Positions 34,624 to 43,742 of a stretch of 56,302 nt of DNA are shown in pieces. Position 1 is the first letter of the stretch, and each line of letters starts with the position of its first letter. The notes beneath the pieces were generated by a model that was not told the DNA's origin, ran no database searches, and saw only the letters and a list, made by a program, of their open reading frames with translations. This DNA comes from a virus. Where the stretch lies: the UHGV virus genome UHGV-0090450. The stretch is one strand, 5' to 3'. The position numbers were made by a program, and so were the translations under genes.

Positions 34624-35493
<870 letters not shown>

Positions 35494-36032: not shown

Positions 36033-38597
36033 TTATTTCATAAGAGTGCGCCTTGTTTTGATCTGATCACGCCATTCTTTTAACGTGCTTATATCCGCTC
36101 GCAGCTCCTTATACTCTGGTATAGAAGCTGGCATTTCCGTCGACTGGCTGTGCTCATAACAGCTGTATTTAGTCATGAGGCTTTCAATCAATTTACAGTC
36201 TTCTGCAGTTATATCCTGTACATACGGAAGCCTTCCGTCAGTCTGGATTCCTCTTCTATGACGTATAACTACCCCGTTAAATAAATCCTCCTCGACAGAG
36301 CGCTCAATGAGTTTACGAAAATCACTGCAAACGCCCTGAGCTAGCCCACGGAAAGCTATTGCGCCATGTTCTTGTCCAGATTTGTAGGCTGAATCCAGCC
36401 TAGTCAGGAGAATGTTATTCGCTGATTTGGTATTCGCGTTCCAGACCTCCTGATCGGCAGGATGACCGGCAGCTCCATCAAATGATTCAATACATATCGA
36501 TTTATGGTGCTGCTTTTTCCATGGGTCTCCCTCTTTTCTTGCCAAATCTTCAATTACCCCGTAAAGGGAAAGTCTGTGCGTTAAAATAATCACCTGACGC
36601 GATTTAGCGAGTTCAACGAGGCGTTTAGCAACTTGCCACTCAAATTCGTGGTCCAGAGATGAAATAGGGTCATCAAAAATGAAGGGAGCAGATCCCGGCC
36701 GATCAGTGACATCGGCTAAAAATGCAGCCAGTGAGATAATCCTACGTTCTCCTTCACTCAGAACATTGTGCAACTTGTCCCGTTGCGCTCCTTTTAGCTG
36801 TAGCTGATGCAAAACTTTCGCATTTTCTGTCCTTATTTTCACAAGCTCAACCTGCAAGCCAGGAGCACCAAGAACTTTCAGCTCACGGTTGAATCTGGCG
36901 GCATAGGCTTCAGTGACAACTTTCTGAGTAATATCAGCAGATTTAGTTGATAATGCACGGGAAGCGGCAAGTGATATCCATTCATCAAATTCACTTCTTT
37001 TTTTTAAGCGTTCAACTTCGGCTCTGATAGCCTCGGCTTGACCAGATAACCACCGTCGAGCTTCGGCTTCGTTTTTATTCTGCAAAGCTTTGGCCCTGTC
37101 AAATCCTGCTGCATCTCTCTGAAACTGGTCGGCTTCTCCCTGAAGCCGGTCGCGGTAAGTACGTAAATTCGTGATAGCTTCGGTCAAATCAGCCAAAGGA
37201 ACTGCTGTCTGGGTAGCTTCATGCTCGGTGAGCGCCTGACGACTGAGGGATGCGGAACTCCATATTCCCGTTAGGTATTTATTCCATTCTTCCTGAATCG
37301 CAGCGCTTGCACAAAGGGTAGCAATTTCGGCCATTGAGGGAGGAATAGTTATCGAGCCGATTGCCTGAGCATACAGACACTCAGCTGTGGCAGCATCGCT
37401 CTCAAGACGTGATTGCACGAAAGCCTCAAGATTGTTCAGACGCTGCTGAGCTTCTGCGGATAGAGCCTGATTGCATAAAACACAACAGGCCTCATCTGTT
37501 GCCGGAAAAGCCTTGTCTGGATAGGGCGTCCTTGAATAGTCGCGAGCAGCTTCCCACATGGCACGCCATACAGGTGAGCCAATGCCCTCCAGTGAGTCAT
37601 CTTTTATTCGTTCACTATCAAGCGCAATTCTGCGCTTGCTGATGCTATCAGCACGTAACGCCCGAAGACAGTCGATATTTGACTGGCTAAAAGTCTTTGC
37701 CGTCTGCTCAAGTTGAGTGATGATCTGATTAACAGATGTTTGAACCGCAAGCTTGTTGCGGGCGTTCTCAGCCGGATCTTTAACGTTCAGACGTTCATTC
37801 AAGGCACTAAGCGCTTGCTCATCCGCCTCAGACCAGTTTGTCATCACTGCGATATTTTCGGTAGTTGCTGTACTTAGTGCACTATAGGTAGTGGCAATAT
37901 GACAACGCTGATAAACAGCAGGTAGTTCGGGAAGTTTGCTGACTAGCTGAGACTGTTCATCCCTTAGCTTATCGCGTACCAGTTTCAGGTACTGGGCCAG
38001 TTTTTCAAAAAGCCCCACCACACTCGGTATATAGGTAGCGGCACTCTCTTGGGTGAGATAATGCAGAGATTCATCCGTATCGAAGATATCAATGCCTTTC
38101 AGGGCATCGATCGGAGGGCTGTCAGCTGACCAGTCCGCTTCAGCATTGCTTTCATTCGCTTTCCATTTAATGTGGCAACTTCGCTCAGGTGGTAAGGGAT
38201 TAAAGACATTAGAGTTAAGCTGAGCTGCTCTAGGTTTTCCGGACATACGTTTGAGCACACGCGTATAGCTGGATTTACCGGACCCGTTATGGCCGTAAAT
38301 AACAGTCAGATTCCCTGAACCGAAATCGAGCGGTAAACGTGGAGCAAGGTTCTCAATACCCTTTACAGCTTCGATCCGACTTAACCTGAGTGTTCCAGAT
38401 CCCTGCTCTGCAGATGCTAGGCCTAGGAAAGTATGGTGTGTCGTTTTTGTTCGTCCATGGGGGGTCTTGAGTAAAGCAATAACCTGCTGAAGGTCATTAT
38501 CTGTCAGGTCATCCTGTTGAATGAGTCTTTCCGCTAGTTCCTGAAACCAGTCCTGCTGCTTTAACAGCCAGGCTATGATATCGGCCTTTACATCCAT
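36033..38597 (-). CDS. RloC-like ABC/SMC-type ATPase with coiled-coil insertion and CxxC zinc hook (AAA_13-like)
   Basis: Walker A VIYGHNGSGKSS, signature LSEGERRIISLAAFLA, Walker B FIFDDPISSLD, H-loop ILTHR, CVLC within the roughly 500-aa insertion; RBS AGGAGGG. Confidence 0.7.
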   Translation of the reverse strand: MDVKADIIAWLLKQQDWFQELAERLIQQDDLTDNDLQQVIALLKTPHGRTKTTHHTFLGLASAEQGSGTLRLSRIEAVKGIENLAPRLPLDFGSGNLTVIYGHNGSGKSSYTRVLKRMSGKPRAAQLNSNVFNPLPPERSCHIKWKANESNAEADWSADSPPIDALKGIDIFDTDESLHYLTQESAATYIPSVVGLFEKLAQYLKLVRDKLRDEQSQLVSKLPELPAVYQRCHIATTYSALSTATTENIAVMTNWSEADEQALSALNERLNVKDPAENARNKLAVQTSVNQIITQLEQTAKTFSQSNIDCLRALRADSISKRRIALDSERIKDDSLEGIGSPVWRAMWEAARDYSRTPYPDKAFPATDEACCVLCNQALSAEAQQRLNNLEAFVQSRLESDAATAECLYAQAIGSITIPPSMAEIATLCASAAIQEEWNKYLTGIWSSASLSRQALTEHEATQTAVPLADLTEAITNLRTYRDRLQGEADQFQRDAAGFDRAKALQNKNEAEARRWLSGQAEAIRAEVERLKKRSEFDEWISLAASRALSTKSADITQKVVTEAYAARFNRELKVLGAPGLQVELVKIRTENAKVLHQLQLKGAQRDKLHNVLSEGERRIISLAAFLADVTDRPGSAPFIFDDPISSLDHEFEWQVAKRLVELAKSRQVIILTHRLSLYGVIEDLARKEGDPWKKQHHKSICIESFDGAAGHPADQEVWNANTKSANNILLTRLDSAYKSGQEHGAIAFRGLAQGVCSDFRKLIERSVEEDLFNGVVIRHRRGIQTDGRLPYVQDITAEDCKLIESLMTKYSCYEHSQSTEMPASIPEYKELRADISTLKEWRDQIKTRRTLMK

Positions 38598-40157: not shown

Positions 40158-40203
40158 ATTCGTAATGCGAAGGTCGTAGGTTCGACTCCTATTATCGGCA
40201 CCA
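40158..40203 (+). other. 3' fragment of tRNA-Thr (anticodon loop to CCA), att core
   Basis: ATTCGTAATGCGAAGGTCGTAGGTTCGACTCCTATTATCGGCACCA matches the 3' 46 nt of E. coli tRNA-Thr(CGU) as recalled; no matching 5' acceptor strand upstream. Confidence 0.7.
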
Positions 40204-40369: not shown

Positions 40370-41584
40370 GTGAAACTCAATGCCCGTCAAATAGACACTG
40401 CCAAGCCAAAAGAGAAGGCTTACAAGCTGGCTGATGGTGGTGGTCTGTATCTCTTGGTAAAACCTAGTGGAGGAAAATATTGGCGCTTCAAGTATCGTGT
40501 AGCTGGTAAAGAGAAGCTGTTAGCACTAGGTGTGTATCCTGAAGTTACCTTGGCTGATGCTCGTGCAAAACGTGAAGAAGCTAAAAGGGGTATCGCTGGG
40601 GGTATCGATCCGATGGAAGCGAAACGAGAGGAAAAGATTGCCCGGGAAACGCAGTTAAACAACACCTTCAAAGATATTGCCCTTGAGTGGCACAGCAGCA
40701 AATTAAAAAAATGGTCTGCTGGTTATGCTTCAGACATCCTCGAAGCCTTCAACAAAGATGTGTTCCCTTACATTGGCAAAAAACCAATCGCCGAAATCAA
40801 ACCACTTGAACTGCTGAATGTGCTGCGGCGCATCGAGGGGCGCGGTGCTACCGAAAAAGCCAAAAAAGTGAGGCAGCGATGTGGGGAAGTTTTCCGCTAT
40901 GCAATTGTCACTGGACGTGCTGAGTATAACCCTGCACCGGATCTCACCAGCGCGATGCAAGGTCATGAATCTAATCATTATCCTTTCCTCACAGCCAAAG
41001 AATTACCTGATTTTTTCAAGGCATTGTCCAGTTACTCAGGAAGTGCATTGGTTGTTATGGCGGCTCGTTTACTGATTATCACCGGTTTGCGGACTGGCGA
41101 ACTGCGCGGTGCATTATGGGATGAAATCGATCTCAACAAGGCTATCTGGGAGATACCTGCTTCACGGATGAAAATGCGTCGCCCTCATGTAGTGCCTTTG
41201 TCTGAGCAGGCTCTTTCGCTTATTGGGCAGATTAAAGAACTAACTGGCAATTATCCGCTTATGTTTCCCGGCCGTAATGATCCAAGGAAAACAATGAGCG
41301 AGGCTAGCATAAACCAAGTATTTAAACGCATCGGCTATAACGGAAAGGTTACTGGTCATGGCTTCCGGCACACTATGAGCACCATTTTGCATGAGCAGGG
41401 CTATAACACCGCGTGGATAGAGACACAGCTTGCGCACGTCGATAAAAACTCAATTCGTGGCACATACAACCATGCGCAATATCTGGATGGGCGGCGGGAA
41501 ATGCTTCAGTGGTACGCTGATTATATGGATTCGCTCGAGCATGGCGGAAATGTGGTGCATGGTGAGTTCGGAAAATGCGGGTGA
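40370..41584 (+). CDS. int: tyrosine integrase (P4 type, N-terminal arm-binding domain)
   Basis: N-terminus KLADGGGLYLLVKPSGGKYWRFKYR, C-terminal catalytic region (HGFRHT, LAH...RGTYNH); GTG start after GGAGG; adjacent to tRNA fragment. Confidence 0.9.
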   Translation: MKLNARQIDTAKPKEKAYKLADGGGLYLLVKPSGGKYWRFKYRVAGKEKLLALGVYPEVTLADARAKREEAKRGIAGGIDPMEAKREEKIARETQLNNTFKDIALEWHSSKLKKWSAGYASDILEAFNKDVFPYIGKKPIAEIKPLELLNVLRRIEGRGATEKAKKVRQRCGEVFRYAIVTGRAEYNPAPDLTSAMQGHESNHYPFLTAKELPDFFKALSSYSGSALVVMAARLLIITGLRTGELRGALWDEIDLNKAIWEIPASRMKMRRPHVVPLSEQALSLIGQIKELTGNYPLMFPGRNDPRKTMSEASINQVFKRIGYNGKVTGHGFRHTMSTILHEQGYNTAWIETQLAHVDKNSIRGTYNHAQYLDGRREMLQWYADYMDSLEHGGNVVHGEFGKCG

Positions 41585-41706
41585 CTGGTTGAGTATACAG
41601 TAGTAGACTTTGAGCGACGAAAGAAAAGGCTGTGTCTAGGGTCGCTCCCGAAAATCCGTACACCTCGACGGACTGGTACAGCCACTACAGTAGAGGACGC
41701 TGAGGT

Positions 41707-42510
41707 GTGCGTATGATTGATATTCATGCCGAATTAAACGAATACAAAAAAGATTTTATTTCTTTACGTGAATTTCTTGAGGTCGTGCTTAAGGTCGCTG
41801 GTGATGATTATGATGTTTCAGATGTCATAACTTGGATACTCAGGAGAATAAGCGGAGAACATATCCGCCTGTACACAGTAAATGAATTTAAGCTGTTGGA
41901 ATCTTTTTGTAACCCGTATCGGGATGAATTTGATAATGATGTTCTTTATAGAAATCTGAATGCGGTTCGGAAACGTGGTTGTTTACCTGGTGAGAGGGAT
42001 GAAAATGGTTTTCTGGTGTCCGGTTATTGGGAAGATCCCGAATTTGAGAACATTGGATTTATAAGGGGTGAAATTTTCGCAATTTTTCCCGATGTCCTTG
42101 ACGCGTTAACGAAGCTGGAAGGCGCTAACTCTTCTGAAAATGACGAGGCACAAGGACGCGATATTGAAAAGAAAGAGTTGCGTACAGAGGATGATTTATT
42201 ATCCCAAATCGCAATGCTGGAAAAAGAAAACGCAGAGTTAAGGGCAAGGATAGAGCAGTTAGAGCAAGAGCGCCCGATACACTTATATAAATACTGGGAT
42301 AAAGACCCATTAGCTAAGGCTATTGAGATTAGAAACAGAGAGTGGGCCAATTACGATCCAGAAAATGATTTTGCCACCAGGGGAAATCAAGAAGCGATAA
42401 CCAGGGAGCTTAAGCAGTGGGGGGCAAGTAATGCACTTGCAACGCTCATAGAGAGGACTGCCTGCCCTATTAACCGAGACAACAGCCAAAAGAACGCAAA
42501 GCCGGATTAA
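41707..42510 (+). CDS. hypothetical protein (267 aa) with C-terminal coiled coil
   Basis: AT-rich ORF between int and alpA; no recognised domain. Confidence 0.5.
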   Translation: MRMIDIHAELNEYKKDFISLREFLEVVLKVAGDDYDVSDVITWILRRISGEHIRLYTVNEFKLLESFCNPYRDEFDNDVLYRNLNAVRKRGCLPGERDENGFLVSGYWEDPEFENIGFIRGEIFAIFPDVLDALTKLEGANSSENDEAQGRDIEKKELRTEDDLLSQIAMLEKENAELRARIEQLEQERPIHLYKYWDKDPLAKAIEIRNREWANYDPENDFATRGNQEAITRELKQWGASNALATLIERTACPINRDNSQKNAKPD

Positions 42511-42519
42511 CGCACCATA

Positions 42520-42675
42520 CCGCATACCCTGAGGGTGATTTACTGTTACCCTGAGGGTATTTTTTTATCTTCCCCGTCAATTTTACCATCACCCTTAGGG
42601 TAGATTTCCTCCCGATTACCATCACCCTTAGGGTAGATTTCCTTCCGGTAACCATTAGGCCTGAGGGTATGAAAA
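42520..42675. repeat. five copies of ACCCT(G/T)AGGGT-containing repeat upstream of alpA
   Basis: Includes two identical 26-bp units ACCATCACCCTTAGGGTAGATTTCCT. Confidence 0.65.
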
Positions 42676-42737
42676 TATTCGTTATTTCTGTGCCATGATT
42701 ACCTCGTCAAATTGAGTAGACGTTATGAGGTAAATAT

Positions 42738-42935
42738 ATGTCAAATACGCTTATTCGTTTAACAGAAGTTCAGCGTAGAACTGGATATAGCAAGGCATGG
42801 ATTTATCGCCTTATGGGGCAAGGTAAATTTCCTGCATCAGTTAAAATTGGCTCGCGAGCTATTGCTTTCGTTGAGAGTGAAATTGACGAGTGGATTAATC
42901 AGCGTATTGCGGAATCACGCGGAACAGCTACCTGA
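42738..42935 (+). CDS. alpA: AlpA-family transcriptional regulator / excisionase-like
   Basis: 65 aa, LTEVQRRTGYSKAWIYRLMGQGKFP HTH. Confidence 0.85.
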   Translation: MSNTLIRLTEVQRRTGYSKAWIYRLMGQGKFPASVKIGSRAIAFVESEIDEWINQRIAESRGTAT

Positions 42936-43012: not shown

Positions 43013-43420
43013 ATGAAATTTCCAAAAACGCCCGTACAGGGGCGGGGCTTCGTTCGGCCTGAAAACCAGAATCTGCAAAATTTCGGCGAAATTATCCCGA
43101 TTATTTCCGGCGTTATTGGCGGGAGTGAAACCACTATTGTTAGCGCCAGAGCGTTATATAAGGCGTTAGGTGTAGGGCGCGTTTTCCGTTCGTGGATCAA
43201 GGGGCGCATTGAAGAATACGGGTTCACGGAAGGCGTGGATTATGAGGTTGTTGAATATTTGAGCCGACCCGATCCGGTGAGCGCAAAATCTCGCCAGCAA
43301 ACCGCTCTTGAGTACATCATCACAGTGAACATGGCGAAAGAACTGGCGATGGTCGAACGTACCGAACAGGGCCGCGCCGTTCGCCAGTACTTTATCAAAT
43401 GCGAGGAGGAGCTACATTAA
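43013..43420 (+). CDS. antirepressor-like protein (ORF6N/AntA-type domain)
   Basis: FRSWIKGRIEEYGFTEGVDY and ITVNMAKELAMVERTEQGRAVRQYFIKCEE match ORF6N/AntA pattern. Confidence 0.65.
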   Translation: MKFPKTPVQGRGFVRPENQNLQNFGEIIPIISGVIGGSETTIVSARALYKALGVGRVFRSWIKGRIEEYGFTEGVDYEVVEYLSRPDPVSAKSRQQTALEYIITVNMAKELAMVERTEQGRAVRQYFIKCEEELH

Positions 43421-43424
43421 GCCA

Positions 43425-43742
43425 ATGTGTGCCGCGCTGGAGGCGTACCGGGCTGAACTGGGTAAAAACACACTCCAGCACCACTACACCACGGAAGCGA
43501 ACATGCTGGCGCGTATCGTGCTGGGTGGCATGACTGCAAAACAGTGGGCACTGGCGAACGGCATTACAGGCGAACCACGCGACCACATGAGCACGTTGCA
43601 GCTTGAGCACCTTTCTTACCTTGAGCAGAGCAATATCACGCTGATTGAGTTAGGCCAGGACTACCACCAGCGGAAGGCTGAATTAATTCGTCTTTCGCAG
43701 CGTTGGTTAGCCCGTCGCATGGAGGAAAACAGCCATGTGTAA
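43425..43742 (+). CDS. hypothetical protein (105 aa)
   Basis: ORF immediately downstream of antirepressor-like gene. Confidence 0.4.
   Translation: MCAALEAYRAELGKNTLQHHYTTEANMLARIVLGGMTAKQWALANGITGEPRDHMSTLQLEHLSYLEQSNITLIELGQDYHQRKAELIRLSQRWLARRMEENSHV

Follow-up and report, generated by a model that had tools for sequence, protein, structure and literature searches.

The viral contig UHGV-0090450 (56,302 nucleotides; the whole stretch is referred to here as the window) contains a set of co-oriented genes coding for a tyrosine integrase, a 267-residue protein that we call ORF-X, the activator AlpA, an AntA/Bro protein, a DUF4222 protein and a D5-type primase (Table 1). This is the published gene order of Gram-negative phage-inducible chromosomal islands (PICIs) (PMC6092414, PMC10111431), with int and alpA at one end, a Bro/AntA zone, a primase zone and no structural genes. 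Pfam matches (including D5_N/DUF5906/Pox_D5 for the primase) and the RefSeq annotation of an identical island identify the element, by its gene content, as an Escherichia coli phage satellite of the PICI type. In Gram-negative PICIs the helper phage raises transcription of alpA, which encodes the satellite's master activator, a member of the excision-factor family, and AlpA then feeds back on itself (PMC6092414, PMC11773190). Here we describe an array of 11-bp palindromes that occupies the 227-bp gap between ORF-X and alpA, together with a candidate protein that may read it.

Table 1. Features of the satellite's integrase end in the window
Feature	Position	Strand	Description
att core TCCTATTATC	40187-40196		Within a tRNA-Thr 3' fragment (…TTCGACTCCTATTATCGGCACCA) at 40170-40200; core sequence from PMC11773190
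Tyrosine integrase	40370..41584	+	Pfam Arm-DNA-bind_3, Phage_int_M, Phage_integrase
int-alpA RNA (Rfam RF02996)	41629-41696	+	45.5 bits (gathering score 35.8); directly 5' of ORF-X
ORF-X, 267 aa	41707..42510	+	RefSeq start is the ATG at 41713; proposed palindrome binder
XC, conserved C-terminal domain of ORF-X	42184-42480		~Residues 160-258; ends ...IERTACPINR
Terminator-like RNA hairpin	42524..42567	+	Palindromes 1 and 2; 15 pairs, then U7
Palindrome 1, ACCCTGAGGGT	42526..42536		Exact match; 16 bp past the ORF-X stop codon; equivalent site retained in diverged relatives
Palindrome 2, ACCCTGAGGGT	42548..42558		Exact match; 22 bp from palindrome 1
33-bp tandem unit	42583..42655		2.2 copies; one palindrome per unit (palindromes 3 and 4)
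Palindrome 3, ACCCTTAGGGT	42591..42601		Exact match
Palindrome 4, ACCCTTAGGGT	42624..42634		Exact match; centre 109 nt 5' of the alpA ATG
Promoter-proximal composite site, CCATTAGGCCTGAGGGT	42652..42668		Contains palindrome 5; relatives carry CCCTCATGCCTGAGGGT at the same position
Palindrome 5 (degenerate), GGCCTGAGGGT	42658-42668		Right arm intact, two mismatches in left arm
alpA core promoter (predicted)	42669..42699	+	-35-like ATGAAA at 42669-42674, 19-bp spacer, extended -10 TGcCATGAT at 42691-42699
alpA leader hairpin	42699..42734	+	Shine-Dalgarno GAGG at 42729-42732 pairs with the upstream arm
alpA	42738-42935	+	PF05930 Phage_AlpA, E = 2.4e-19

A first-pass annotation of the window had placed repeats at 42520-42675, and the location is borne out by four exact matches to ACCCTKAGGGT (palindromes 1 to 4), where 0.02 are expected by chance and none of 100 shuffled sequences contained as many. 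The repeat was described there as a 10-bp palindrome in five copies; the array is real, but the palindrome is 11 bp long (two five-base arms about a single central base, or 5-N-5) and four of the copies are perfect while the fifth is half-degenerate. Start-to-start spacings of palindromes 1 to 5 are 22, 43, 33 and 34 bp, and within the 56-kb window the 9-bp core CCCTNAGGG is found only in this array. The 33-bp separation of two identical units holds as well, and corresponds to a tandem repeat in which 28 nt rather than 26 are identical (42583-42610 and 42616-42643).

The array was compared across 83 distinct alpA-upstream regions, which were drawn from an AlpA-anchored survey of viral contigs and from other fetched loci (loci are designated here by L numbers). 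The same alpA-upstream region as in the window is present in 164 of 5426 complete E. coli genomes (~3%) and also occurs in related Enterobacteriaceae. E. coli strains differ by whole units, with one, two or three copies of the 33-bp unit (one in L003 and three in L002), and L011 has an additional 22-bp unit, such that unit gains and losses among relatives are of either 22 or 33 bp. In L004, L006, L009, L019 and at least ten further islands the flanks cannot be aligned, yet two to five CCCTNAGGG palindromes remain, and this retention in diverged surroundings indicates from the sequences that the palindromes are under selection. A MAFFT alignment of 12 diverged regions confines conservation to four kinds of element: the palindromes, a promoter-proximal CC(C/A)T(C/T)A(T/G)GC(C/T)TGAGGGTATGAA sequence, a TGnnAtnAT block, and the alpA leader. 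Multiple copies of a dyad in a control region, conserved relative to their flanks, have the form of an operator array.

The arrangement of the sites is also constrained. Site-to-site spacings in the relatives peak at 22, 32-33, 42-44, 54-55, 66 and 76 bp, and 86 of 98 deviate by at most 1 bp from multiples of 11, the class at 21-24 bp being the commonest (34/98). Because the spacings are multiples of approximately 11 bp, the sites lie on one face of the helix. Their register is set relative to alpA, with the last full palindrome centred 107-109 nt 5' of the alpA ATG in 33 of 43 distinct regions and the proximal degenerate site centred at 74-75 nt in 25 of the 43. The earlier proposal of sites for a dimeric regulator controlling alpA is consistent with all three properties (conservation against diverged flanks, spacing by helical turns, and fixed distance from alpA), and alpA is most likely the gene that the array controls.

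ORF-X proteins are mosaics, in which the N-terminal 150 residues range from 99% identity to unrecognisable; the conserved part is a coiled coil (residues 161-188) plus the next ~70 residues, ending A-x-A-I-E-x-V-A-C-P-I-x-R, which together we refer to as XC. The palindromes track this domain. The CCCTNAGGG core is present in all 43 regions with a strong XC match upstream and in none of the other 40, many of which encode the same AlpA recognition helix; the association has a nominal Fisher p of 1e-24, the regions being related by descent and the sites adjoining the gene. A scan of viral contigs that began from the DNA pattern recovered islands carrying both ORF-X and alpA in 21 of 25 matches, and it found no paired palindromes in other phage genomes outside such islands. 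At L005 AlpA is 97% identical to that of the window (63 of 65 residues) while the upstream gene product is only 28% identical to ORF-X, and neither ACCCT nor AGGGT occurs throughout the 255 bp upstream of alpA. At L019 and L036 AlpA is 74% identical and the C-terminal part of ORF-X 53%, and three palindromes are kept, spaced by 22 and 44 bp. The integrase was rejected as the binding protein since its allele does not track the motif (the L040 integrase is 99.8% identical but the locus has no sites, whereas L016, L026 and L028 have sites and integrases of 66-67% identity), and AntA was rejected because its allele is likewise unlinked to the motif.

Within ORF-X it is the C-terminal rather than the N-terminal domain that predicts the repeat. 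XC is joined to an unrelated N-domain in 20 unique regions and the palindromes are kept in these, whereas N-domains related to those of XC proteins but fused to a different C-terminus lie upstream of TTCCAMA repeats. The half-site in turn co-varies with the residues aligned to positions 224-228 of the window protein: members of the TRGNQ/TRANQ subfamily are associated with 122 CCCTnAGGG sites and one ATAG-containing site, and those of the xPSQ/xPTQ subfamily with 14 and 11, respectively. L163 has ACTAT-N-ATAGT sites of the same 5-N-5 geometry, and L164, the most distant relative examined (profile E ~1e-3), still has ACCCTCAGGGT and GCCCTGAGGGT. The type of site thus co-varies with the adjacent regulator domain, with physical linkage as a confounder. 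AlpA, the 267-residue protein and a helper repressor had all been named initially as possible binders, and the tracking of the motif appears to narrow these to the 267-residue protein.

No match to ORF-X was found in Pfam, PHROGs, NCBIfam or PADLOC, and a profile search of 1.8 billion representatives returned only 95 clusters. The full-length AlphaFold2 model is of moderate confidence; in it a disordered linker separates an N-domain from a long helix (161-188), which is followed by a small helical C-domain. The model of XC is confident (predicted local distance difference test, pLDDT, 90). Comparison of both models with solved structures and with predicted viral ones gave nothing above noise, and no recognisable DNA-binding domain was identified in ORF-X. 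Because there is no structural or database match, we infer DNA binding by XC from genomics only. Comparison of the profile with PDB sequences gave only insignificant coiled-coil matches (Max, USF and GCN4; E >= 0.067). Some RefSeq entries are labelled "bZIP" or "coiled-coil" on account of the zipper-like helix, and one homologue (H24) is named a 'bZIP transcription factor'. ORF-X does share with eukaryotic bZIP proteins (AP-1/GCN4, binding TGA-C/G-TCA) a zipper-like coiled coil and a short, odd-centred dyad, but the segment before the zipper (residues 140-160, ENDEAQGRDIEKKELRTEDD) is acidic and there is no basic region, and the conserved domain follows the zipper instead of preceding it; we therefore reject membership of this family. 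A literature search found no published description of the ORF-X family or its motif; searches with the motif strings gave only unrelated eukaryotic primers, and the literature on PICI repressors and inducers and on the int-alpA RNA yielded nothing on a locus combining ORF-X and palindromes. In the viral contigs no loci were found for P0059 and P0060, two proteins in which a window-type N-domain is joined to a different C-terminus, and none from the SCPI subfamily alignment.

The predicted alpA promoter lies immediately downstream of the proximal site. The TG, A2 and A5-T6 positions of its extended -10 element are invariant in the 12 diverged regions, and a strict consensus scan of this strand reports no sigma-70 promoter. 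A start near 42706, as predicted, would place the palindrome centres at approximately -43, -77, -110, -153 and -175. No palindrome overlaps the predicted -10 or +1, and a site abutting the -35 region fits occlusion and class-II activation alike.

We consider it fairly probable that the palindromes constitute the operator array of ORF-X, the protein encoded directly upstream. ORF-X would dimerise through its coiled coil and XC would read the 5-N-5 dyad ACCCT-N-AGGGT, with dimers filling several sites on one DNA face and so exerting cooperative, switch-like control over a weak alpA promoter, whose -35 region would be abutted by the proximal site. The variable and shuffled N-domain would form the input side, most likely sensing a helper-phage product. 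Since in related PICIs AlpA promotes both its own expression and the cycle of excision and replication, such an array would gate satellite induction; the connection from the array to excision is taken from published work on other PICIs (PMC6092414). In those, the helper induces the alpA promoter even when alpA is mutated, and neither an inducer nor a repressor has been defined (PMC6092414, PMC11773190), which leaves room for a factor such as ORF-X. As to the direction of control, we slightly favour repression that is relieved by the helper, as with Stl of the Staphylococcus aureus pathogenicity islands (SaPIs), over helper-dependent, class-II-like activation from the site at about -43. The distal sites 1 and 2 probably have a second role in the window, in terminating int/ORF-X transcription before alpA.

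Several observations weigh against ORF-X as the binding protein. The sites begin only 16 bp past its stop codon, and because they adjoin the gene, co-inheritance by linkage inflates the association with XC; the 83 regions are also phylogenetically non-independent. By eye XC is not basic. The last helix of XC in the window reads ASNALATLIE where the consensus is FSSRQAESIE and the motif is the same, and in L164 CCCTNAGGG is retained although the residue motif differs, so the specificity determinant is not pinned down. ORF-X and its presumed target are co-directional and no palindrome is found at ORF-X's own promoter, both of which are atypical of phage repressors. Finally, the well-studied PICIs EcCICFT073 and EcCIMP1 lack ORF-X (PMC6092414), which means that it is not a universal switch.

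In one alternative the palindromes would be bound by a regulator of the helper phage or by a host factor, with ORF-X cooperating or merely linked and making no DNA contact itself. The homologous promoter of P4 is activated directly by helper proteins, and P2 Cox and Ogr acting on the P4 late promoter provide a model for this. XC has no known DNA-binding fold, and the helper still induces the alpA promoter in PICIs that lack ORF-X (PMC6092414, PMC11773190), so that promoters of this kind are open to a helper factor. We nonetheless think it rather unlikely, since it leaves unexplained the tie of 43/43 against 0/40 to one C-terminal domain across deep divergence, would not lead one to expect covariation of the half-site with XC residues, and sits poorly with the viral-contig scan, in which no phage genomes other than islands encoding ORF-X and AlpA had paired sites. 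Autoregulation by AlpA is a very unlikely explanation for the palindromes. Winged-helix proteins of the AlpA/Xis type typically recognise direct repeats as monomers, which speaks against an AlpA dyad. It is true that the sites lie directly upstream of alpA and that in EcCICFT073, and probably also in EcCIMP1, the alpA promoter is activated by AlpA (PMC6092414, PMC11773190), but at least ten loci with the same recognition helix (RRTGYSKAWIYRLM), some with AlpA 97% identical, have no ACCCT/AGGGT palindrome. The sites fail to accompany the helix in L005-type loci, in L196, L197, L198 and L204, and in others including EcCIMP1, whose AlpA has the same helix and no such palindrome upstream.

A role of the repeats solely as RNA hairpins, either ending or stabilising the ORF-X message and insulating alpA, draws on how sites 1 and 2 behave. 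Each copy being itself palindromic, two copies can pair, and the inverted repeat spanning these two was also detected in a repeat search of the window (as I3). The resulting hairpin has a minimum free energy of -25 kcal/mol (z = -5.75; none of 200 shuffles folded as well), and a consensus scan flags terminator-like sites at the array; in 9 of the 15 arrangement types among the relatives, the central bases of the first pair of sites can form a complementary or wobble pair, where ~37% would be expected. A stable hairpin with a U-run at a gene end, as in Rho-independent terminators, is formed by sites 1 and 2 only, and this structure is probably, to judge from its sequence, the terminator of the ORF-X transcript, with a predicted end before alpA. 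As an account of the whole array we find it quite unlikely. Only 5 of the 15 arrangement types have the T-run, and sites 3-5, which lack one, come after the putative terminator and keep a fixed distance to alpA. A single 11-mer is too short for a stable hairpin; it is the arm sequence itself that is kept, with degenerate copies changed on one side (for example ACCCTTAGAGT and ATCCTTAGGGT); and the spacing matches the helical repeat of DNA. The T-run count, the position of sites 3-5, the one-sided changes and the helical spacing together argue that termination is not the main role of the family. Arm-type integrase sites, or sites for an excision factor, belonging to the att region might be considered, given short repeats in an integrative element near an integrase and an excisionase-family gene, but are hardly credible here. 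The first-pass annotation had already set classical arm sites aside on the grounds of a 2.3-kb distance to the att core; the core's position confirms this distance, and two genes intervene. The sites do not lie within about 150 bp of the core, do not follow the integrase allele, and are fixed in position with respect to alpA, not att.

The int-alpA slot in which ORF-X resides is filled in other islands by several unrelated C-terminal families, each with its own type of repeat. There are at least six other cassette types (L005, L039, L040 and L196-L245), all of which precede a shared alpA leader. The repeat is ACCGCAATTGCGGT in the type represented by L040, L196 and L218 (5/5 regions), TTCCA(A/C)A direct repeats in the L204 cluster, TGCATGCA in the L198 type, TGACATGACA in the L201 type, and GGTGGG-type words in L005-like loci; an AT-rich TTAAATT repeat is also seen in this slot. 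It is possible, although we regard it as doubtful, that ORF-X and the other families of the slot sense the helper and act as master regulators in a large class of Gram-negative PICIs, exchanged as cassettes. Each cassette would be flanked by the int-alpA RNA on one side and a conserved alpA core promoter on the other, and would combine a shuffled N-domain as sensor, a C-domain of new fold that binds DNA, and a matching phased operator array; a change of cassette would redirect the satellite to new helpers. Unrelated metagenome-assembled genomes of Chloroflexota, Gemmatimonadota and others (L041-L120) abound in paired ACCCTNAGGGT repeats, often with many per genome; presumably these belong to a dispersed repeat family unconnected with the alpA locus. 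The scan of genome contigs for paired sites gave no usable Enterobacteriaceae loci among the matches listed.

The locus looks like the CI/OR and Stl switches in its general plan but differs from both in protein family, fold, co-directional layout and phased 11-bp dyads. Stl and (in its proposed role) ORF-X are both regulators encoded by the satellite at the integrase end that gate its cycle, with a highly variable part suited to helper proteins and multiple dyad sites in the control region. They have no sequence or fold relationship, and Stl is transcribed divergently from its target and has an N-terminal helix-turn-helix, whereas ORF-X is co-directional with alpA and its conserved part is C-terminal; Stl is a repressor, and repression by ORF-X is putative. 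With the OR and OL operators of lambda CI the array shares several dyad sites and, as we would predict, cooperative occupancy. The centre of lambda OR2 is close to -42 relative to PRM, much as the proximal site would be centred at about -43, and each abuts the -35 region of a weak promoter. The protein families are different, the lambda sites are 17 bp rather than 11 bp, and the array sites, unlike those of lambda, are phased at whole helical turns over 150 bp, upstream of a promoter whose position is predicted.

In the related satellite P4, the activators of the late promoter PLL are P2 Ogr, P4 delta and P2 Cox. It lies upstream of vis in a homologous position, as a weak, helper-tied promoter before an AlpA/Vis gene with repeats upstream (PMC10111431). 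The sites at PLL are TGT-N12-ACA dyads and Cox boxes for helper and P4 late proteins, in contrast to ACCCT-N-AGGGT, and P4 has no counterpart of ORF-X, the gene that the palindromes track. EcCICFT073 and EcCIMP1 belong to the same class of element as the window island, with the same order of int, alpA, Bro/AntA and primase, and the recognition helix of EcCIMP1 AlpA is identical to that in the window; their helper-dependent induction is documented, but they have neither ORF-X nor a palindrome array, and the cis elements of their alpA promoters are not defined in the papers on them (PMC6092414, PMC11773190). If ORF-X binds these sites, XC would be a new DNA-binding domain without known structural relatives, modular cassettes of sensor and operator could explain helper specificity and its rapid evolution, and the components could serve in engineering PICI-based delivery or diagnostic tools.

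The alpA leader is predicted to fold such that the Shine-Dalgarno sequence is paired. In the window the hairpin is weak (-8.2 kcal/mol) and not significant by itself, but among 46 distinct alpA leaders the Shine-Dalgarno sequence is paired in 93%, compared with 60% in controls, and the arms vary while staying complementary (CTCGTAA/TTACGAG, CTCCTGTAG/CTACAGGAG, TCTCCCGT/ACGGGAGA and others). Because the predicted -10 element is just 5' of the upstream arm, transcripts from the alpA promoter may lack this arm and read-through transcripts may carry it, and a possible function is fold-back insulation of alpA translation. BLAST comparison of the window, L005 and EcCIMP1 promoters shows only short shared words. 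The sequence TATTCG (42677-42682 in the window) recurs within ~100 bp of alpA in four promoters whose contexts are otherwise unrelated (the window, L005, L019 and L165), all of which share the AlpA recognition helix, and is a weak candidate for an AlpA box.

The int-alpA RNA is located 5' of the gene in the ORF-X position rather than directly before alpA, whichever family fills the slot. It precedes the gene in this position in 11 other loci (for example at 2051-2118 in L004, 1710-1777 in L019, 1941-2009 in L040 and 1931-1997 in L161), and its 3' end extends into the ribosome-binding site of that gene, so that it looks like a leader or attenuator. The stretch containing the palindromes (42511-42737) has no match to RF02996, and its sole other covariance match is to RAGATH-25 (E = 0.54).

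The att core, whose sequence is that reported for EcCIMP1 (PMC11773190), is not accompanied by an intact tRNA gene or by attL/attR direct repeats of at least 12 bp within the window. The island adjoins a prophage, whose tail genes extend to ~33 kb, an arrangement that is no more than suggestive of helper dependence, and in strain F9792 prophage tail genes likewise lie upstream of its copy of the island. Between the tail genes and the satellite are two candidate defence genes on the opposite strand, coding for an 854-residue ATPase (36033-38597) with a full-length match to PADLOC PDC-S06 and a 274-residue protein (34624-35448) that matches PD-T4-3, and the satellite appears to be in tandem with the upstream prophage and these defence genes at one att site. 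Genes for isrK and C4 antisense RNA (a P4 CI-like immunity RNA) are present in the Bro zone of L019, L165, L196, L201, L208 and L230, ~1-2 kb downstream of alpA, and none scored above threshold in the window island. The AntA/Bro gene of the window (43013-43742) is split into reading frames of 135 and 105 aa where relatives encode a single 266-aa protein, and this may reflect a frameshift in the window copy.
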